Shown: one piece after another, positions 2,048-43,780 of the stretch
Position numbering within the stretch: position 1 is the first letter of the stretch
Layout of the letters: every line of letters begins with the position of its first letter
Virus record (IMG/VR): IMGVR_UViG_3300029305_004082
DNA length: 43,780 nt
DNA from: a virus
Lineage: Duplodnaviria; Heunggongvirae; Uroviricota; Caudoviricetes
Strand: one strand, 5' to 3'
Made by a program: the position numbers and the translations under genes
The notes under the pieces: model-generated
What the model saw: the letters and a program-made list of their open reading frames with translations, nothing else
What the model was told of the DNA's origin: nothing
Databases searched by the model: none

Positions 2048-2788
2048 TTACTTCTTGCGGCAAATTATATAAAGAGAGCTTGCGAGTACAAGTGCGGGAG
2101 CGACGATAGATACAGCGTCGCCAGTCTTGGGAATGCCGAGCTGAGGAGCTTCGGCCTGCACATACCAAGCAATAGTTGCACTGGTTTCGCACACACGACC
2201 AAAGTTTGCAATAAGCACATCGTCATTCATACAAATCTTGCCATCATACAGCTTCTGGATATCAATGCCGAGCTCAGCAAGTTCAGCAAGCATGTCCGCA
2301 ACATTAAGGTCGCTATTTACATCAACAACAACACCATCTGCGTTGCGAGTAAATACGAGGTCGCCAATTACAACAGTAGCACCCTCGGCAACAATGGGTT
2401 CATTCTTATACTTAAGGTCGGCAACTGCAGTCTTTTCAGTAATGCTAATCTTGACCCAAGGTTCAGCGCCAATTACCTTTGCACGGAAAATCTTGCCGAC
2501 GGCTTCAAGGTCGCTCAGATGATGATACTCAACATCGGCGTCAACCTCTTCACCTGCGGCATCAGCGGCAAACAGGTCAAAGTAAACATAATCGCCAACC
2601 TTTGCCATTGCGTTAGGAGCCTTTTCGTAAGCAACACCAAGGTCAGAATCAATCTTAACGTACTTGGTTGCGGAAAGAACGTATTCATCACATTCAACAA
2701 CGTCTACGTCATTCCAGTTAAAAGCAAAAGCGGCAGACATGCCGCAAATGAGTACAAGAGATACAAGTATTGCAAAAAGTTTCTTCAT
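2048..2788 (-). CDS. Secreted, sortase-anchored (LPXTG-type) cell-surface protein
   Basis: Signal peptide MKKLFAILVSLVLICGMSAAFA. C-terminal IPKTG, hydrophobic VSIVAPALVLASSLYIIC and basic RKK tail. RBS GAAAGGA. Confidence 0.82.
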   Translation of the reverse strand: MKKLFAILVSLVLICGMSAAFAFNWNDVDVVECDEYVLSATKYVKIDSDLGVAYEKAPNAMAKVGDYVYFDLFAADAAGEEVDADVEYHHLSDLEAVGKIFRAKVIGAEPWVKISITEKTAVADLKYKNEPIVAEGATVVIGDLVFTRNADGVVVDVNSDLNVADMLAELAELGIDIQKLYDGKICMNDDVLIANFGRVCETSATIAWYVQAEAPQLGIPKTGDAVSIVAPALVLASSLYIICRKK

Positions 2789-2820
2789 TAATTTATTAAT
2801 CCTTTCGATGTTTGTAATTA

Positions 2821-3312
2821 TTAATAACTACCACCCGTCCATGTCGGCAAGGATGAAAGAACATCCGACACTATTTCCTCTTTATCAGTTGTGGTCCAAT
2901 AGTCAATTCCTTTTTCGGGGGTATATGTAGTAGATGTAAACACCCATTTGCTATTCTCACCACGATACCACGAGCCCTTTATGTAGCTTTCGTTAGTTTC
3001 GCCGACGTACTGAATTACAGCACCTTCGGTAACGGTAGAAGGCATCACTTCGTACTGAACCGTAGCCTGACCACCAATCATTTCCAAAATATCAGCAGCG
3101 GGAATAGCCGACGGCAATGCCTTGCTGGAGCCGGTATTGCCCATTAAAGTCTTGGCCGCAACCTGCTCCAGAATCGGATGATTCCCGTTATTTCCAATAA
3201 AAAGCTCCCCGGTATCAGTGCAGAGGCCAAGTTCACCTTGCTGTAGACCCGGGGAGGCGTCAAGTGCGGCACGAGTGCCGCGTTTATGTTTTATGGTTGC
3301 CACGATACTCAA
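2821..3312 (-). CDS. Tail-fibre-associated protein with Mtd-N/hyaluronidase-like N-terminal motif
   Basis: IKHKRGT..LQQGELGLCTDTGELFIG resembles the motif found at the N-terminus of phage fibre proteins; lies in the fibre cluster. Confidence 0.55.
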   Translation of the reverse strand: MSIVATIKHKRGTRAALDASPGLQQGELGLCTDTGELFIGNNGNHPILEQVAAKTLMGNTGSSKALPSAIPAADILEMIGGQATVQYEVMPSTVTEGAVIQYVGETNESYIKGSWYRGENSKWVFTSTTYTPEKGIDYWTTTDKEEIVSDVLSSLPTWTGGSY

Positions 3313-3320
3313 CCTCCTTA

Positions 3321-3560
3321 TTAGTTAAAAGAACCACAGTCTATTTCTTGAACACTTGTAGATATCTCAGTATCCGCACTGCCGTCAAAAGTAGCAGAAC
3401 CCGCCACGTCCCCCGTAAGGGAGACAGTGACGGGCTCAGCAATTTTGCTTGCACTTACGGCATTTGCGGTGGAATCTAATTTGGTGTCGAATTTATTCTT
3501 AATTAACTCAATCAGTTTGGAGAGAGAGTTTTGCCCAGAATAGTTCAACATCTTCTCCAC
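3321..3560 (-). CDS. Small tail-fibre module protein (79 aa)
   Basis: ASKIAEPVTVSLTGDVAGSATFDGSAD is a common fibre repeat. N-terminus resembles that of 3574-4842. RBS GGAGG. Confidence 0.55.
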   Translation of the reverse strand: MEKMLNYSGQNSLSKLIELIKNKFDTKLDSTANAVSASKIAEPVTVSLTGDVAGSATFDGSADTEISTSVQEIDCGSFN

Positions 3561-4862: not shown

Positions 4863-5027
4863 TTAATCAACAATATATTGGTTCCAGAGCTCTTGGAGCC
4901 TGGTGTTGGAAATTTCCAAAAGGTCAGACTCTTCCAGTTTTATTTCGTCTAAGGCAGCATCAGCCTTATCGACATAATCCTTATTGGTTAAGTCTTTGCC
5001 TTCGACGATGTTACCCAGATATTTCAT
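4863..5027 (-). CDS. 54-aa fibre-module protein below the ORF-track cutoff
   Basis: RBS AAGGAG then ATG. MKYLGNIVEGKDLTNKDYVDKADAALDEIKLEESDLLEISNTRLQELWNQYIVD fills the gap exactly. C-terminus resembles that of 3574-4842. Confidence 0.7.
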   Translation of the reverse strand: MKYLGNIVEGKDLTNKDYVDKADAALDEIKLEESDLLEISNTRLQELWNQYIVD

Positions 5028-5036
5028 GGGTTCTCC

Positions 5037-6407
5037 TTATACGTAAAGGATGTTCAGCTTAATGTTGTTTGCGTATGCTTCGGAGATGCTAAACGTATGG
5101 TCATTACCAGAGACAGGGGAGAGGTGGTCGATTATTACCTCTTCGCCAGTCACTACGTCCCGAGCATGATAAGACAGAAGGGTGCCTGCAACGGTAGCAG
5201 TGCAAGTGGTGTCACCCGCCGCAATATTGGCTTCCATAGCAACAGGAACAGTGGGAGTGTCGGACAGGTCGTTGTAGGAGCCGCTAAACGCAACGTCCTT
5301 CAGGTCTGCCAGATACTTTGCAATCTTGCCGAAAATTACAGCAAGGCTTTCACCAGTTGCAATGTTCTCACGAGCTTCTGCGGCGGTAAAGGCGGCGGTA
5401 GTATTGCTTGCATCGCCGGTCTTGGTCAGATAATTAGAAAGGTCAATCTGAGTGTTACCAATCAGTTCCCAATCGCCGTTGGCATACAGATATTCATCGT
5501 AAATATCCTTGTTCTTGCCAGAGGTGCGTCTAACCATGTAGATGGTCGTAGTAGATATGTCAGCCTCGGGCAGAGCTTCAACAATCTGGATATCAATAGT
5601 GGAAATATTTCCAATAAGACCGTTGACTTCTTCCTTGGTATAAGTTTCGGTCTTAGTGTAGTAGTTAACCAGATTGGCAACAGTGTTGTCGATGAAGTTT
5701 TCATCGTTGGTAAGCTCGGACAGCTTAACAGGAACAGTTACGTCAACCGCCTTGTTAGTAATATCCAGAGCAGTACCATTTACCTTGACAGACTCAAGGA
5801 CATTTACCTGAGCGCCTGCGGCAATACCTGCGAGCTTAGTCTTCTCGTCGGAGGTATAATCGTTGGAAGACAGGCCCATGCCGTCAACCTTATCAACCTT
5901 ATTATCCTGCAGGTTCTTGATATCAGTAGACATAGTGCCCACATCTTCAAGCAGACCTTCTACGGCAGTATTCAGGCCATCAACGGTAGTGGTATCGGGC
6001 AGAATCCATTCAATCTTACCTGCGGCATTAATACGGGGCTGCTTACCTGCAAAATTACCAGCGGCAATAGCTTCGGCAAAGCCGTACAGCTTCATAACAC
6101 CGTCAGCGTTTACAATAGAAGCGTCGTCGCCAACAACAGCGCCGCCAATGGGCTTGAGGGAACGGTCAGCATCAATCTTGTATACGGTTACAGTATCGTT
6201 CTCGTATACGGTAATAATCTGACCCACATAAGAAGCACCGCACAGACCACGGCTATCGGGGTCGGTAGTATTACCAGCGGCATACTTTACAGCATCGGCA
6301 TAAGTTGCAAACAGGTCGGTTCTGTCCAGAGGGAATGCACCCGTTCTCTGGAACATCAACGCCCAGTCGAGCTTGGACTTATTGCCTAAATCAACAAAAC
6401 TTGCCAT
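5037..6407 (-). CDS. Tail fibre protein (456 aa)
   Basis: KVDKVDGMGLSSNDYTSDEKTKLAGI, VESVKVNG, KLSELTND, YTKTETYTKEEV, IDLSNYLTK and AFSGSYNDL fibre motifs. Confidence 0.7.
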   Translation of the reverse strand: MASFVDLGNKSKLDWALMFQRTGAFPLDRTDLFATYADAVKYAAGNTTDPDSRGLCGASYVGQIITVYENDTVTVYKIDADRSLKPIGGAVVGDDASIVNADGVMKLYGFAEAIAAGNFAGKQPRINAAGKIEWILPDTTTVDGLNTAVEGLLEDVGTMSTDIKNLQDNKVDKVDGMGLSSNDYTSDEKTKLAGIAAGAQVNVLESVKVNGTALDITNKAVDVTVPVKLSELTNDENFIDNTVANLVNYYTKTETYTKEEVNGLIGNISTIDIQIVEALPEADISTTTIYMVRRTSGKNKDIYDEYLYANGDWELIGNTQIDLSNYLTKTGDASNTTAAFTAAEARENIATGESLAVIFGKIAKYLADLKDVAFSGSYNDLSDTPTVPVAMEANIAAGDTTCTATVAGTLLSYHARDVVTGEEVIIDHLSPVSGNDHTFSISEAYANNIKLNILYV

Positions 6408-18800: not shown

Positions 18801-21351
18801 AACCAGAAAACCGCCTATCGCACCAGTAGCTTCAAGAACTTTCGCCGAAAGAATCTCGAATGACAAGCCGAGAGCCGAGGTCGAACCTGCGGCTACCGCC
18901 TCATTTGCAATTGTCTTAACTAAATGAGACTGAAGGGTGGGGAATTTTATAAGAAGTTTGCCTAAAGTTTCTTCTCCATTGAGAAGAGCCTTAGAAAACT
19001 TAAATACGGCAGAAGCTGCTTTAACGCCTTTTATTGCGCCAATCAAGCCTAACAACGTAGGCAATACACCAACAAGGTCTATAACACCAGTGGTTATATT
19101 AACTACGCCCGTACCAATATCAAGTATGTTTTTTACAAGACCACTATCAACAAAAGAATCTGCAAGGTCGTATACGGCAGATTTAAATGCGGCGCTCTTT
19201 GCACCAATGGAGTCCAAGTACGCACCGTATTTTTCAACAGCAGTTCCTGCGGAGTCGGCAGAAACACCTGCCAGTTCCATTGCTTTGTCATAGTTCTCCA
19301 TGAGAACCATCCTATATGTTCGGTATAAGTCGCTACGTTATACCCGCTTTCGCCGCTTTATGTCTCCATAAAGAGCAGACCATATCATCATCCACAGGGG
19401 ATGCCCACCACTTCCACACGCTTGTGTGTACGTCTTACGACTGGTCGTTGAACCTTCTCCTAAGCGGAGCTTGGCTGCTGATTGCCCAATCCACATCTGT
19501 TTTCTAACCATCACGCCTGTCGTTTCCAACTACGTTGTGGTCGATGTGGCTCTAAGGGGTTTCCAGCAATTCAATGGGTTTGCTATACATGTTGCCACGT
19601 ATAGGTTCTGATTTCAAAACCGTTCTTGTTGACGAGTTCCTGAGAACGCAACGGCTATTGCTCTCTGTTGAACAGAGCTATAATTATGCCATTCTCTTGC
19701 AACATCATCGAGCACGTCTTTAAAGTTGCGGAACTCGTCTTGTGAATCTCGCAATGCAATACCGGCACCTTTAAGCACGGTTTCAACATCACTAAGAGAT
19801 TCTGCGGATTCGGGGTCGTATAAATTACCCGCCTTTATATTACCCATACGGGCAACAAGGGTCTTAAAGAAGTTACCAACGGATTCCGCTGACTGTTGCG
19901 TTACTTCACCAACTGTTGCAATATAGCCAGTCAAGGTATCGAAGTCGATGCCCATCTTGTTTGCGCCAACAGCAGTCTGAGCCATAGCTGTTGCCAGATA
20001 TCCAGCGGAAACAGCGGCGCTCATATCGGTTGCCGCAAACTTATCTACAACACTTTCGACCTCATTAACTTCAAGCTTGTACGCCTTCATTGCTGAGGTA
20101 AGAGCGTCGGTAGCCTCGGAGGCTTCCATCTGGCCCAACTTAGCCAACATGGTGCTGTTGCGAATTAGTGTGTTTGCTTCTGCGGCAGAGTAACCCTGCC
20201 TACTGTAGTGTTACTTATAGGCTCGCTACGCCTACAAGAATGTTTCTCACGGTTTCCCGCAAGCACAGACCATATCTTCACCCTCGGCATCATCCGTTAG
20301 GGGTTCTCCATTTCCGACGCCAAACGCTTGCGCCGTACACCTTTCGGTTGGTCGTTGAACCTTCCTCTGTTCAAGGCTTGGCTGCTGATTGCCCAATCCT
20401 TATAATTCTTAAACCTTCACGCTTGCGCTTATTTCATCGCTACGTTGTGGTTATAAGGCTCTAAGGGGTTTCCAGCAATTAAGAGAATTGTAACCGTATA
20501 TTTCTATACGGCAGACCTATTTTATTAAGCCATCCATCAGAAGCTTTTGCTACTTCAACACTGGTTGCACCAATTTCCTTGGCTAATTCGTGATAACTTT
20601 CCATCATCCGCCCAACTTCATCGGCGGATTTACCGCTTGCTATCTGCAAGTCAACCATTACCGAATCAAGTTCGGTTACATACCGCACCGCTGTGCGAAG
20701 TGCCCTGAGAGCTAAGATTATCGCACCAATCGAGTCATATACTCCAATCATGCGCTTCGCCGCAGTTGCAAACTTATGCCCAAATGTATCAGCCTCTATG
20801 CCGACACGCTTTGTTTCAAGCTTCAGCCTGTTAAACTGTGCATTGGCTTCGGCTACTGTAATATTTCCGTCTTTTAACTCTTTATTTAATACACGTATTG
20901 TATATGCTGCATCGCTATAATTTTTAACGTCTTTATGGCTTAATAGCCAACTGTCGGTTCTGGTTTTAAAATTCGATGCGGCAAGAGTGTCCGCCGATTT
21001 TGTTTTTGCTTCCTGCGCCGCCGCCTTTAATGCGGCACGTTGAGCTTCGGCTAAAATTTTCTGCTTTCTTGCCTCTTCGGTTTCCTGCTTCTTTATACCG
21101 AGAAGCCGCTCGTTTTCTACTTTTTGGGCTTGGAGCGCCGTCAGCTTTTTCTGCTCACCAAGGAGAACCATTTTGTTGATGCTCTCCATGTCGGCGGCAG
21201 ACATATTTAGTTTAACTTGGAAAGCTCCAGTCTCGTTTATCCTTTTTGATATGGCGGCTAATTGCTGAGATATAGCCGCATACGATTTTTCCACGTCAAG
21301 TTGCGCTACAACATTAACAGCGCTACTGGTTATATTTACATCAGACGCCAC
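15885..21351 (-). CDS. Tape measure protein in three exons (21351-20528, 20202-19617, 19310-15885), 1611 aa after splicing
   Basis: Exons of 824+586+3426 = 4836 nt give 1612 codons. Junctions read SDGWL-RQGYSAAE and GTRQQERF-MVLMENY, both plausible TP901-type TMP core sequence. Long coiled coil; peptidoglycan-binding-like repeats near the C-terminus; GTG start with RBS AAGGACGGTG. Confidence 0.9.
19311..19616 (-). ncRNA. Group I intron, ORF-less (TMP intron 2, 306 nt)
   Basis: P AAUUGCUGGAAA, Q GCAAUCAGCAGCC, R GUUCAACGACCA, S AUGAUAUGGUC. P7 GACCA/UGGUC, P3 CCCAU/GUGGG, P8 CAUCC/GGAUG. P1 exon GGUUU pairs with GAACC, giving U.G at the splice site. Terminal G. Confidence 0.9.
20203..20527 (-). 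ncRNA. Group I intron, ORF-less (TMP intron 1, 325 nt)
   Basis: P AAUUGCUGGAAA, Q GCAAUCAGCAGCC, R GUUCAACGACCA, S AAGAUAUGGUC. P7 GACCA/UGGUC, P3 UUCUCU/GGAGAA. 5' exon ends in U and the intron ends in G; removal restores the frame. Confidence 0.9.
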
Positions 21352-38477: not shown

Positions 38478-38557
38478 AACATCAATTGAGCTTTATTTAT
38501 ATTATGGTGGTCGCGCTCTACGACCACATCATCACTTGCAAGAGGTTCGAAAGGGAT

Positions 38558-38857
38558 TTAAACCTCTGAATTAACTTCTTGTGCCGCAATGGTATCCTTA
38601 AACTTTTCCGTATACTCGAAATCTGGATAACGGCGAGGCGGATACTCCTGCGTGCATTTTGTCTTGAAGTTATACCGTTTAGTTGCAGGAGCGGTACGTA
38701 TAACAAAACGCCCCACACCTTCCAACCAAATAGGGTCACCACTTTCAAGCTTATATTTTACGTAATCGCAAATCTCATCGTACAGCTCTTCGGACGATGC
38801 GATAGTGTAGCCGTAACGCTTTGCGAACTCACGTATGGTTTTCTTTTTTGAATACAT
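38558..38857 (-). CDS. HU/IHF-family DNA-binding protein
   Basis: KKTIREFAKR..L.SGDPIWLEGVGRFVIR..R.N.KT..PPRRYPDF..KFKD matches the HU fold. Confidence 0.82.
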   Translation of the reverse strand: MYSKKKTIREFAKRYGYTIASSEELYDEICDYVKYKLESGDPIWLEGVGRFVIRTAPATKRYNFKTKCTQEYPPRRYPDFEYTEKFKDTIAAQEVNSEV

Positions 38858-38880: not shown

Positions 38881-39864
38881 TTAGTTGAGGCAAACAAGCT
38901 TGGTGAAATCACGCATCTCCTTACCGTCTTTATCAAGGCAAAGATATATGAATCCTTGCTTCTGGCTGTTAACAAGCTTGCCGTCATTGTACATCATCGA
39001 ATCGGTCTTGCAACAAGCACCCTGCTCATACAGAGCGGTGTTACCAACGATGTACTGACCAAGCCTGTGAGTGTGGGCCATAACGAGGGTAGAGAACTTG
39101 TAGCCCTCATTGCGGAACCACAGCATTGCATCGTTTGCGGTCTTCATTGGCGCAGACTTAAATGCCAGAGGGTGTGCGAAGATGACTTCGCCAACCTGCC
39201 AGAACCAATTGTTTGCGTATTCAATTTCGATATTATCAAATATGTTTGCGAGAGGCTCGTACCATGTTTTGGTGCGGGTTTCCTTATCATAATGATGGAA
39301 GCCATCAACGATGATAAGTTCGAGCGCCGTCAGAGGCATGAGCTCCAAAATGTCGGTGTCAAGGTTTTTGACCAGATAATTCTGAAGCCTCTGGTCGTGA
39401 TTGCCGTAAGTGACGGCAACCTTCTTGGGCTGGATATATTCGATAAGAGATATCAGATATTCCCGCGCCGCAATAATTTCTTCCATGGGACTCTTGCGGT
39501 ACGCCTTGGGGAACTTGGAGATAGAGTAGCCGTCTACCACGTCGCCGTTAATCTGCAACAGGTCTACGCAACCAACGTAATCCTTAAACACTTCAACGGG
39601 ATGTTGGAAAGGAACATGCAGGTCGCTTATGCTCAGCACACGCAACGCAATGCCGGAACGTCCCTTCTCTCGTTCGTAAATGCGGCCGCGATTAAATGCG
39701 GCGTATTCCTTGCGGTAAGCGCAGGAGCCGCGAGGGTTTGTATTATCGGGCTCGTCATTAAGAATGTCGGCAATCTTATCACAGGTCAGACCGTATTCCG
39801 CCTTGTTTTCAAAAAGGCGTATCATGTAATCCTCAAAAGTTTCATAATCGAACCTTGTTATCAT
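38881..39864 (-). CDS. Calcineurin-like metallophosphoesterase
   Basis: SDLH, GDVVD, GNHD, AH and AHTH motifs. Confidence 0.85.
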   Translation of the reverse strand: MITRFDYETFEDYMIRLFENKAEYGLTCDKIADILNDEPDNTNPRGSCAYRKEYAAFNRGRIYEREKGRSGIALRVLSISDLHVPFQHPVEVFKDYVGCVDLLQINGDVVDGYSISKFPKAYRKSPMEEIIAAREYLISLIEYIQPKKVAVTYGNHDQRLQNYLVKNLDTDILELMPLTALELIIVDGFHHYDKETRTKTWYEPLANIFDNIEIEYANNWFWQVGEVIFAHPLAFKSAPMKTANDAMLWFRNEGYKFSTLVMAHTHRLGQYIVGNTALYEQGACCKTDSMMYNDGKLVNSQKQGFIYLCLDKDGKEMRDFTKLVCLN

Positions 39865-40221: not shown

Positions 40222-43200
40222 CTATACAAGAGAGTAACTTGCACCATATAGGACGATATTTCCATCATTATTTGCACGTAACTGCGGTACGGCAGTGTGG
40301 GATTCGCGGATGATTTTAAACAGGCTTTCATTTCCAGCGGAGAACAGAGTTTCCATTAAACTCATAGGTACGTTAATAGCCTTCTTCTCCATTATGCGGA
40401 AGAGCAGTCTGGCGGTAGTGGCGTCAAACTTAACGGAGCGCAGGAACTCAACCTGTTCGTTCATAAGGTCTTCTGCAAGCATAAATTTCTCAGCGGGGGA
40501 GATGTTGTCATTTATGTCGCTACCCCAAACCGCCTTAAGCTTGCGACTTGTTTCTTTCGCCATATCTACAATCTTCTGGACACGTCTGCGGTGAGTATTA
40601 GTGATGTGCTCAGGAGAAGGGGAGATGATGTGCGAGAATGGAACATACTCATATTTAGGTACGGTTATATATCCGCGAGAGTTCAACACAGTCTGCACGT
40701 AATCCATAGTGGTCTTGTGTTTCTTGTAATTGTTGCGGTGGGGGTTGTAGTATCCTTTGGCCTTGCTGACAGGCTTAAAGAAGTTGGGTTTTATTTCACG
40801 GTTATCTTCATCTCTAAGCTCATGCTTCTTCTTCAGCTTGGTAAGCTCCTTCGGTATGTCTACCGGCAAATGCTTCTTTGCCGCATCAATAGAAAGATTG
40901 CTCAGCACGTCGAGATAGGATATGTCGCGATACAAGCTCTGTATTTCTTCACTATGTACATCAGCGCCGTTGTTTACGGCATCCCACAGGCGGCTATTAA
41001 GCACCTGCGATAAATTAATAACCTCACCAATCTTATTTACGGACGTTTTAACATCCAAGTCAGCAAGGTCTTCATCACAGTATGTTCTTTTCATTTTGAC
41101 CGCTTCAATCAGACGAGTAGGTACTGCAAAGTTGTCGTAGTTGCGCTGAGCTGCCTTAATGAGTATGGGGTCGTCGGTAATAAGTACAGTATCCGAGTCA
41201 AACCTTTATACCGTGGCTTTCGCCATACTTTAACGCTCCTCGTAGGAGCCGGAGTAGACTATCTCTTCACGTCAGAGACGTGCTTGGCGCTTCGCAATGC
41301 CGAGTTTCACGGCAAAGCTACTTCCTTTCGGAATAGTCGTTACACGTTCCGGTGTTTGGCTCACCGGCTTCGCACGATGTTTACATGTGGCTTCATGTTT
41401 AGGCATATTTATAACGGTGTCCATAAGCGACACCGTTTTCTTTCAAGGCTTTTGCTATATAGTTGCTGGCCGAATAGGGATGTTTACACTTTGCAATACC
41501 TTTATCAATCAGGTAATTCGAACACTCTGCAATGTAATTAAATTGCCCAATCTCATTCCAATCCAAATCAAACATGATAATTGGTGTAGCTCTTCCGTTT
41601 TGAGCCCCGGGACGACCAAGCAACGCTTTTTCTTCTGGATGAGCAGCGTAATAATCTTTAAGTTTTGTTCCACCATAATTGGAATTGTCCGCACCATAAT
41701 GCTTATATTTTCCAAGGTTTGCAGAATACGCTACATTTTCAGCATGTGTTAACCATTCGAGGTTTTCTGCGGTATTATTTGTTCTATTCGTATCTTTATG
41801 GTTAACTTCGAGCCCCAGGTTATAACCTTCGACGAATGCACGAGCAACTAAGATATGGATATTATGACGCCTGCTAATTCCATCACGGCTCAGCTTAACC
41901 ATGAGATACCCATCCTCGTTTGTATATTTTGTCATTTCCCTGCATCGCCGAGGTTGTTTAACCCCATCTGCTTTTTCTATTATTCTATCGACAGAACGAA
42001 CATTACCAATATTGCTAACCTCGTAATATCCTTCATACCCAACAACGGGTTTCCAAATCTCTTCTACAATATCACCTTCTTTATAGTTTATACGAAGCCA
42101 TTTAGTAGTCCATCGTTAGCAGTTACGGTGCCAAACCCGCAACCACACCCCACATGTGTGGGTTCACCAAGTTTTCATTTGCGTATCGCTACGCAAAGCG
42201 ACCATTGTGTTAATCGCTTCCGCTAAGTCTTTCCAACAGATTCTCATTAATGCTGTTCACATAAATGATTTCATCCGTTGCTCGGAAATAGCGGTCTATC
42301 TCTTCATTATACTTATTGACGCACAACAGAATATTTCCAGCGCAAACATGAGGGGAGCGGGAACCGAGCAGGGTTTGTCCGTCCGCAAATCGTGAGTTAT
42401 ATACGGTGCCGGGGGCAATACAAGATGTACCATCAAACCGACCAATGGCAGACTTGAGCATCTCCATAGGGTTGCCGCACAGAGTGCAGTATGTACCGTT
42501 AACCAGCACGTGCCCCTTACGCATGTCGTTAATAAAAGAGCTAATATTGTCGTCGCGGTATTTTGCGTACATCTTGGTTTTAGTGAACTCATCGTTCAGC
42601 CCCAAGAACTTATAAACAATCTCGTTGCGAGACATCAGTTTCTCGGTCTGGAAACCACTCTTCTGGTTAAACTTAACATGATGACGGAACACTGCAGGAT
42701 TGGTTTTGAGCAGTCTCGCATAGTCCAGAGAGGGCTGCAGGAACTCACGCACTTCATCTGTGAACATCTGCAGGCTGTTGAGCAGTTGGTAGTGAGTCTG
42801 CACCAGTCTGCCGCCCATAAAGTGCGTAGGCTTCTCATGCTTAACAATGCCGAAAGTAGGGTCAAGGTTATCCAACCACTTATCAAAGGAACCGAATTTT
42901 AAATACTTTATAGAAGAGGGGGTTGTTATAAGCTTGATGTCCTTAATGTCGGTCGCTCTGGTTTTGCCGCACAACTGTGACACCTCGGTAATACCGTTAT
43001 CCGCAAAGAACTGCTGTATGTTGCAATGGAACGCCGCACTCTTGAAGAAGCGGTTGCGCAGAAGCATAAATCCATACTGGCGGTAATTTCCAAAGAATGA
43101 AGTATCAAGTAGAGATTCACCGTCGAAGATGCTATTGCAGATGTTGGCGGTCTTCTGTTCCGTCATGACCTCACCCTTATCATTCAAGTAGGTCATTACC

Positions 43201-43780
43201 GCCTCATCGCTAAACTTACTTTCGTAATCGTCGATGAGCAGAATGTTCTCAGGCCGAATTTCCATCGTGTCGATGATAGAGGAAGAAGTGAGGGAGATGT
43301 AGCTTTCAAGTGCCGCAAGGTCCACAGGGTCATTGCGATAAATGGGCAGACCCGCCATATCCCACGTATGCATTCTGCCATACATCTTCTCGTCTATAAA
43401 ATTACACTTACCAACACGAGCACTGCCTGCGCTGCGCTTATAGCGACAATAGTGAGTGCCGTCAAGGTTGAAACCATTCTTGTATATCCAATGACGCAAC
43501 TCAGCGCGGGACATTACTTGGGGCATTACATCTTTGGCGACATACACACCATCTTCCATCCAGAAAAGGTTGCCGAGTATTTCGGCGGAGACAGGGTTTT
43601 CGACAGGCATTCCTGTTTGCACTGCAATCAGCACCCCGTCACGGTAGTCGATATTATCAACCAACTGGACATCGCTGTAACCGTATCCATGCCGTATATA
43701 CAGGCCGTTGCTCAGGCGGTTGTATTGTTTAATGGAATACTTGAAGGTTACGTTAATGATGCGGGTGCTGTACTCCTTGT
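40222..43780 (-). CDS. yonO: YonO-like single-subunit DNA-dependent RNA polymerase, split by a group I intron; 5' end outside the window
   Basis: Frame is open to the window edge (KEYSTRIINVTFKYS..). KRSAGSARVGKC, IFDGESL, LLRNRFFKSAAF, SRSPH. Exon 1 ends at 42213 and exon 2 runs 41202-40222; splicing gives SGSDFDSD and at least 848 aa. Confidence 0.88.
41203..42212 (-). ncRNA. Group I intron (IA-type, 1010 nt) carrying a homing endonuclease
   Basis: P1: exon GAAGCGAU pairs with GUCGCUUU (U.G at the site). P3 CUUGGU/GCCAAG, P4 ACGAUG/CAUCGU, P6 arm CCGGUG/CACCGG, R GUAACGACUA, S AAGAGAUAGUC (P7 GACUA/UAGUC), P7.1 UUCC-GAAA-GGAA, P8 CACGUC/GACGUG. Terminal G. Confidence 0.93.
41399..42067 (-). 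CDS. Intron-encoded NUMOD4-HNH homing endonuclease (I-HmuI-like architecture)
   Basis: The frame extends 44 codons upstream of the track's ATG: EEIWKPVVGYEGYYEVSNIGNVRS (NUMOD4), then HILVARAF..VNHKDTNRTNN..NLEW.T..EN (HNH) and a NUMOD1-like C-terminus. Start codon uncertain. Confidence 0.88.
   Translation of the reverse strand, partial: VEEIWKPVVGYEGYYEVSNIGNVRSVDRIIEKADGVKQPRRCREMTKYTNEDGYLMVKLSRDGISRRHNIHILVARAFVEGYNLGLEVNHKDTNRTNNTAENLEWLTHAENVAYSANLGKYKHYGADNSNYGGTKLKDYYAAHPEEKALLGRPGAQNGRATPIIMFDLDWNEIGQFNYIAECSNYLIDKGIAKCKHPYSASNYIAKALKENGVAYGHRYKYA

Follow-up and report, generated by a model that had tools for sequence, protein, structure and literature searches.

How can a phage make a functional RNA polymerase when the gene is cut between the codons of its catalytic aspartates? 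The question is raised by IMG/VR record IMGVR_UViG_3300029305_004082 (Caudoviricetes), of which we analysed a stretch of 43,780 nucleotides (nt), hereafter called the window. On its minus strand, a gene resembling yonO, the single-chain RNA polymerase gene of phage SPbeta, is separated into two exons by an insert that starts directly after the first aspartate (Asp) codon of the D-x-D-x-D motif. The insert is very probably a mobile group I intron of the IA2-like type, carrying an I-HmuI-like endonuclease gene and splitting the metal-binding motif of the polymerase.

The split gene and its uninterrupted allele

Exon 1 is open from 43778 to 42213 and runs off the window. It ends in E-R-L-S-G-S-D, the last three codons being GGA AGC GAT, and its longest open reading frame (ORF) in the genome record G000 has 580 codons (L001 714-2453; the TTG start is the longest-ORF choice). 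An in-frame TAA (42212-42210) follows directly after the GAT. Exon 2 opens at 41202 with TTT GAC TCG GAT. The insert thus lies between the first and the second Asp, and the triad is complete only once the exons are joined (D580 followed by F-D-S-D). The codons, the TAA and the coordinates had been given in an earlier, sequence-only reading of the window, and all of them were exact when we read the minus strand again. Of the 847 positions of the PHROG profile phrog_8308, 106-550 are matched by exon 1 and 551-803 by exon 2. Since the match stops at 550 and resumes at 551, the break between the exons is exact.

We searched for an allele in which the gene is whole. Of 3052 homologous database proteins (E up to 1e-10), none is closer than P0003, which has 906 residues (580 + 326) and 97% identity and is encoded on the 112.7-kb contig L011. 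This contig represents a phage 94-98% identical to the present one and without the insert. It has one gene of 906 codons with the motif G-C-D-Y-D-S-D, and its DNA aligns through the end of exon 1 and picks up at the start of exon 2 with zero extra bases. Contiguous D-x-D-x-D motifs are found at the aligned place in MT835469, MT835887, Enterocloster phage PMBT24, Bacillus phage BUCT082, Psychrobacillus phage Perkons and SPbeta YonO. Hence, intron-less homologues have the contiguous motif at this position, as the sequence-only reading had anticipated, and its proposal that splicing rebuilds GSD/FDSD agrees with the way the two exons are joined in L011. MT835469, a 176-kb human-gut phage, also has a GOLLD RNA (172.6 bits; L002 6158-7219) flanked by two tRNA genes, about 500 nt 3' of its uninterrupted YonO-like gene.

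Splicing at ...AGCGAU/UUUGAC... would restore G-S-D-F-D-S-D in an enzyme of 906 residues. If the intron were retained, translation would halt at its first codon and leave a 580-residue product, ending after the first Asp and devoid of the other two. This is the only product that unspliced mRNA could give, in line with the earlier claim that such mRNA encodes a dead enzyme. Changing all three Asp of YonO to Asn inactivates the enzyme (PMC5467207).

One may ask whether the two halves could be translated independently and then associate to form the active enzyme, as happens with genes split by the insertion of free-standing endonucleases. Split phage RNA polymerase subunits are known (PMC2919709), as is a split nrdA gene (PMC3045599), and in Clostridium phage c-st the proteins CST179 and CST177 are annotated as separate N-terminal and C-terminal YonO homologues. 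Here, the F-D-S-D of exon 2 sits 36 codons 5' of the first ATG, which is the earliest start codon of any kind listed in frame, and an in-frame TAA stands two codons 5' of the exon. Translation begun separately at such a codon would thus yield a C-terminal piece without two of the catalytic Asp. The insert also has a conserved ribozyme fold, described below. We rejected this explanation for want of a start codon for the part bearing D-S-D, and hold it to be extremely improbable.

Several comparisons identify the host gene. An hhalign comparison between a profile of 12 full-length relatives and one of YonO with its Perkons homologue gave a probability of 98.9% (E 1.4e-17, 509 columns) and aligned the D-Y-D-S-D of the relatives onto the D-N-D-G-D of YonO. 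The Pfam family RdRP (PF05183) matches the uninterrupted P0003 at residues 501-727 (28.1 bits vs a cut-off of 23.8); when exon 1 and exon 2 were scanned separately, no significant Pfam family was found. A chain of BLAST matches leads from the window to BUCT082 (2e-4) and from BUCT082 to yonO (3e-14). No match was obtained in a sequence search of the PDB with exon 1, in a megablast of the polymerase gene against the phage collection, or in a single-protein search for related loci in viral contigs. With the AlphaFold model of P0003, the top 25 Foldseek matches include QDE-1, RDR2 and the RNA polymerases P32 gp64 and P74 gp62 of phages (E down to 4e-11); all are two-barrel RdRP-type polymerases, with template modelling scores of just 0.37-0.43. 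The genes downstream of the polymerase are YonJ-like and HU-like, and the same genes in L011 carry the Pfam domains YonJ_N, Metallophos, Bac_DNA_binding (HU) and YonG_N. In SPbeta, the HU gene yonN follows yonO. Sequence profiles, the predicted fold and the neighbouring genes thus support the identification of the host gene as a YonO homologue, probably a single-chain two-barrel RNA polymerase, as first proposed.

The late genes of SPbeta are transcribed by YonO (PMC5467207). Homology and gene order suggest that the polymerase of the present phage may also transcribe late genes. We also observed an Rfam 6A RNA motif (53.4 bits) 27 nt 3' of the HU-like gene, at 38481-38531 on the minus strand of the window and at 7412-7462 in L011. 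A late transcript of the polymerase itself might start at this motif.

Structure and conservation of the ribozyme

The window's own sequence forms every helix from P1 to P9.1, among them P7 (GACUAU/AUAGUC), P7.1 and P7.2 (table 1). In P1, the end of exon 1 (...GAAGCGAU) pairs with the internal guide at 8 of 8 positions, with a U.G at the splice site. The base that precedes the insert is U and the insert's final base is the omega G at 41203, a boundary that is set by L011. The endonuclease ORF fills the loop of P5. The 8-bp P1 and the complete P3-P8 core that the sequence-only reading described are thus present, and P1 is also predicted by RNAalifold.

We then analysed the conservation of this structure in an alignment of 12 relatives and 386 columns (A1). 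Its members were drawn from ORF-less copies at the same codon (L065, L066, L068 and L076) and introns of the same subclass in other genes, the latter located via conserved sequence patterns taken from the window's intron. Unguided, RNAalifold recovered P1, P2, the long-range P3, P4, P5, P6, P6a, P7.2, P8, P9 and P9.1, with compensatory changes in 40 of 68 pairs; such changes are present in P3, P4, P5, P6, P6a and P8. Standard pairs occupy 97.7% of the cells, vs 35-45% in a control where the partners were slid by 1-3 columns. In 500 column shuffles at most 79% of cells were paired, and the 37 compensatory pairs observed compare with a maximum of 32 in the shuffled data. The two extra hairpins between P3 and P4 are kept in all 12 family members, with compensatory changes (A1 columns 64-101). 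Introns with these two hairpins, inserted in several kinds of host gene, were located at about 30 loci of viruses and metagenomes.

From the relatives we built two half covariance models, R1 for the 5' part and R2 for the 3' core. Each has a single match in the region: R1 at 42114-42208 (80.7 bits, E 1.7e-18) and R2 at 41190-41345 (108.2 bits, E 3.2e-25). R2 also matches P7-P9 of two other introns of the window that are confirmed by Rfam (E 1.9e-07 and 5.7e-04), which ties the core of the intron under study to accepted group I introns. Another group I intron is found by Rfam beyond the window (G000:C1:35012-35291, plus strand). With these three further Rfam-confirmed introns, the 110-kb record has at least four group I introns in a genome estimated to be 63% complete. 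Covariation, the family models and the NUMOD4 and HNH_3 domains of the ORF all agree with the earlier proposal of a group I intron with an HNH endonuclease. Two other classes of element were considered and ruled out: an intein, given the in-frame stops, and a group II intron, for which there are no matching features, a group I core being present. We infer from these structural data that the intron splices itself.

Table 1. Positions of the exons, the intron, its helices and neighbouring features in the window.
Feature	Position	Strand	Remarks
Exon 1, YonO-like RNA polymerase gene	42213..43780	-	extends past the window edge; first Asp of the catalytic triad at its end
Group I intron, 1010 nt	41203..42212	-	UAA opening in frame with exon 1; last base G
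Exon 2	40222..41202	-	F-D-S-D-T-V-L-I-T-D-D..., 326 codons + stop (40224-40222); catalytic Asp 2 and 3
NUMOD4 + HNH ORF, I-HmuI-like	41399..42070	-	frame open from 42115; stop TAA 41401-41399
P1	42195..42220	-	exon 42220-42213 with internal guide 42202-42195; RNAalifold columns 10-14/23-27
P2 hairpin, GNRA loop	42181..42194	-	compensatory changes in 7/7 pairs among relatives
P3 5' strand	42165..42171	-	partner 41289-41283, about 880 nt away; double changes in 4/7 pairs, 12 relatives
Two extra hairpins between P3 and P4	42162-42149, 42146-42119	-	not in the Rfam consensus layout
P4 5' strand	42116-42111	-	partner 41379-41374; covaries
P5 5' strand	42100-42093	-	partner 41395-41388, 8 bp; A-rich J4/5 between P4 and P5
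3' ribozyme part	41203..41398	-	P5', P4', then P6 through P9.1, terminal G 41203
P6/P6a	41373-41344	-
P7	41338-41333 with 41262-41257	-
P7.1	41333-41322	-
P7.2	41314-41298	-
P3'	41289-41283	-
P8	41282-41268	-
P9	41249-41235	-
P9.1	41225-41214	-
YonJ-like metallophosphatase	38881-39864	-	downstream of polymerase
HU-like DNA-binding protein	38558-38857	-	downstream of polymerase; gene order as in SPbeta-like phages
Other group I introns in the window	19356-19626, 20246-20537	-	RF00028

Interruptions in other YonO-like genes

If the insert is an intron, how frequent are such interruptions? The best 120 homologue clusters comprise 49 short ones and 71 of full length, the latter reading G[ASC]D[FYM]DSD. 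About 40 of the 49 short ones terminate at G-[SAC]-D or within a few residues past it. Interruption at or beside the first Asp is thus common, affecting about 40 of the 120 nearest homologue clusters.

It could be argued that the insertion is not spliced at all, the polymerase being a dead split pseudogene in a phage that uses the host RNA polymerase or another enzyme. The case for splicing is indeed made from sequence, and the intron scores below the threshold of the Rfam model. But both exons retain long open frames and conserved motifs, compensatory changes maintain the helices of the ribozyme, and the other introns of this genome lie in the tape-measure gene. Moreover, a lethal or useless lesion is unlikely to recur at this codon in a third of the nearest clusters. 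We thus regard a dead gene as very improbable, and return to the reading of a spliced, mobile intron.

Breaks are also seen at other positions of the gene. In c-st (L008 2451-2767), the break comes after the second Asp codon, 6 nt 3' of the site occupied in the window, and the insert is ORF-less; the c-st record lists the pieces as the individual proteins CST179 and CST178, and CST177 downstream as the C-terminal YonO homologue. In MT835481 (L009 about 2085-3035), the break has the same position as in c-st. Read by eye, its insert has a NUMOD4-like N-terminal motif (EEWK…YY..SN) and the same P3-hairpin layout. In Enterocloster phage CB457P2 (L007 2073-3197), the gene is interrupted about 93 residues past the triad, and PMBT24 is the uninterrupted counterpart. 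A third site is occupied in L065, which has a second intron (4888-5248; Rfam group I, 64.9 bits); it breaks the gene at the conserved motif I-D-x-A-K-K, some 105 residues C-terminal to the triad.

The endonuclease and the mobility of the intron

The endonuclease frame of the window has 238 codons and encodes NUMOD4 (PF07463, 2.8e-13) and HNH_3 (PF13392, 2e-08) domains, with a match to phrog_59 (1.3e-38). It matches I-HmuI in the PDB (1U3E, E 1.6e-15) from residue 3 of that chain, leaving residues 134-238 of the ORF uncovered. On this likeness, the protein, or a recent ancestor of it, would nick or cut the intron-less allele, and repair would copy the intron and some flanking exon sequence into the cut allele.

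The first sign of such spread comes from a comparison with the interrupted homologue L013. The introns of the two are 97.4-99.5% identical while their exons are 72-82% identical. A near-identical intron in hosts with diverged exons indicates a recent transfer. The second comes from the intron-less L011. The final 240 nt of exon 1 differ by 15.8% between it and the window, and the 15 nt that open exon 2 by 27%, vs 2-4% beyond these flanks. Such a tract of divergence around the site is the pattern expected of exon co-conversion in homing and supports its having occurred, although divergence of the target site in the empty allele could also contribute to it.

Four states are found at this one site: empty (L011), intron with ORF (window and L013), ORF deleted (L012) and ORF-less (L065, L066, L068 and L076). 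In the L012 copy (2956-3385, about 430 nt), most of the ORF has been deleted between the strands of the P5 stem, so that some 20 codons from the beginning of the frame (up to and including ...V-E-E-I) are now joined to some 25 from its end. From its sequence, L012 would seem to be a copy in decay, at one stage of the homing cycle.

Observations that weigh against the proposed intron

A number of our results count against this interpretation and have to be set beside the evidence above. The Rfam group I model RF00028 (gathering score 50 bits) gave no match at the intron when run on the whole window and on 41000-42400. Its best result on the 3' 181 bases was 11.5 bits (E 1), with the correct layout yet insignificant. 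On the ORF-deleted L012 it reached 15.7 bits (E 0.13), with the 5' half misaligned. Rfam searches of the interrupted homologues L007, L008 and L009 returned nothing at E up to 0.01, and those of L012 and L013 nothing at E up to 1, the weak RF00028 alignments being obtained from very short stretches only. The matches of R1 and R2 denote family membership rather than independent discovery, because the relatives were found by patterns from the window's intron. P7 gives no covariation signal because it is invariant within the family. The 5' half deviates from the consensus in having two hairpins between P3 and P4. On the side of the polymerase, the AlphaFold model of P0003 is moderate (mean predicted local distance difference test 64.5, with the catalytic loop below 50). 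Finally, ATG, GTG and TTG are all missing from the endonuclease frame in the interval from the preceding stop (42118-42116) to the NUMOD4 motif, so that translation of the ORF may be weak, or the ORF may have been disabled recently.

The ORF is not the sole cause of the Rfam miss, since L012, from which it is mostly deleted, scores just 15.7 bits. The miss is a limit of one general model and no defining property of the group I class. Hence, of the search with group I covariance models that the sequence-only reading had suggested, the part relying on RF00028 stayed below threshold, while the family-specific models matched both halves of the intron.

The absence of a usual start codon raises another possibility, namely that the intron splices but is no longer mobile, its endonuclease having lost its start codon and decaying, and that it is now a vertically inherited passenger. 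The earliest canonical start is an ATG at 41935, past NUMOD4, and L013 and L012 also lack a canonical start. Relatives show GTG or ATG at the homologous place, and where the 46%-identical relative L095 has GTG the window has GTA. The ORF-deleted L012 and the several ORF-less relatives at the same site would also fit such a loss. On the other side, the frame (about 236-238 codons) is intact in both the window and L013, and the near-identity of their introns points to a recent transfer. Codon changes between the two number 11 synonymous and 8 non-synonymous, and in the NUMOD4 stretch 5' of the first ATG they number 4 and 1, which are small numbers. This hints that the NUMOD4 stretch is still translated, perhaps from ATT. 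The candidate starts are ATT (42070-42068) and GTA (42067-42065), after a Shine-Dalgarno-like GAAGGTGAT, which is followed on the minus strand by ATT GTA GAA GAG ATT TGG (at 42056-42070). ATT is a rare start codon in bacteria. All considered, an intron that has lost its mobility seems to us rather unlikely, and a mobile intron, spread by this endonuclease or by a recent ancestor of it, remains the reading we prefer.

Relation to known introns and significance

It is a classic finding that essential phage genes contain mobile group I introns which encode I-HmuI-like HNH enzymes. The intron of the SPO1 DNA polymerase gene, which encodes I-HmuI, resembles the present one in being a group I intron in an essential polymerase gene of a Firmicute phage, with a nickase that combines a NUMOD4-type N-terminus and HNH. 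It differs in its host gene and target site, and the ORF described here has no canonical start. Concerning the ribozyme, the IA2 introns of phages (T4 td, Twort; RF00028) share with it the U.G of P1, the terminal G, the P3-P7 pseudoknot, P4-P6, the A-rich J4/5, P7.1/P7.2, the sequence of J8/7 and P7, and P9/P9.1. Unlike them, it has two hairpins between P3 and P4, an ORF in P5 and a sub-threshold RF00028 score. As for the host gene, SPbeta YonO (Forrest et al. 2017, PMC5467207) is likewise a single-chain two-barrel RNA polymerase that has three catalytic Asp, and its gene too is followed by an HU gene and accompanied by YonJ/YonG-like genes, whereas yonO is uninterrupted, its product is only about 25% identical, and its motif is D-N-D-G-D instead of D-F-D-S-D. 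The role in late transcription has been shown only for SPbeta. By analogy with SPbeta YonO, the whole late programme of the present phage may depend on splicing.

The closest parallel in position is the gp210 intron of phage PhiPA3, which lies in a virion RNA polymerase beta-subunit gene, is putatively of group I and encodes an I-HmuI-like HNH enzyme; nicking and competition have been proven for it (Birkholz et al., Science 2024, PMC11620839). In both phages, the intron lies inside an RNA polymerase gene beside a catalytic Asp and the endonuclease is I-HmuI-like; that of PhiPA3 targets intron-less alleles. The intron of gp273/274 in 201phi2-1 is a case similar to PhiPA3 (PMC2919709). The systems differ in that the PhiPA3 host gene encodes a beta-like subunit of a multisubunit jumbo-phage polymerase, while the present one is of the single-chain YonO/RdRP type; competition is experimental there and proposed from sequence here; and the present subclass is missed by Rfam. 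One may speculate, from this analogy, that the HNH enzyme of the window also serves in competition between phages. A broader and more doubtful proposal is that a subclass of introns invisible to Rfam, marked by the P3-P4 hairpins, has colonised the catalytic codons of YonO-type genes in a large family of gut Firmicute phages, about one in three of which would carry it, with its nickase acting as a weapon against intron-less co-infecting relatives as in PhiPA3 gp210. We consider it unlikely in this full form. If true, splicing efficiency would gate the amount of late-gene polymerase.

Our literature searches retrieved no report of an intron in a YonO-type gene, nor of extra P3-P4 hairpins, which agrees with the sequence-only reading, where this was thought to be undescribed. 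The same kind of split is nonetheless visible in the public record of c-st, and a 2021 survey cites the N-terminal piece of c-st as a YonO-like enzyme, leaving the intron unmentioned. The finding is real, well supported and apparently new to the literature; the element itself is of a well-known selfish kind.

It matters first for annotation. Gene callers split the polymerase into two 'hypothetical proteins' in about one-third of the nearest clusters and in long-published genomes such as c-st; once the intron is recognised, these annotations regain a full-length single-chain RNA polymerase. Since the standard Rfam model misses the subclass, such introns are probably under-counted in phage genomes. 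It also means that the rule of mobile introns residing at catalytic codons of essential phage genes now covers the YonO/RdRP-type polymerases. Intron-plus, intron-minus, ORF-deleted and ORF-less alleles being public, these genes would provide a natural system for the study of homing and competition among gut Firmicute phages.

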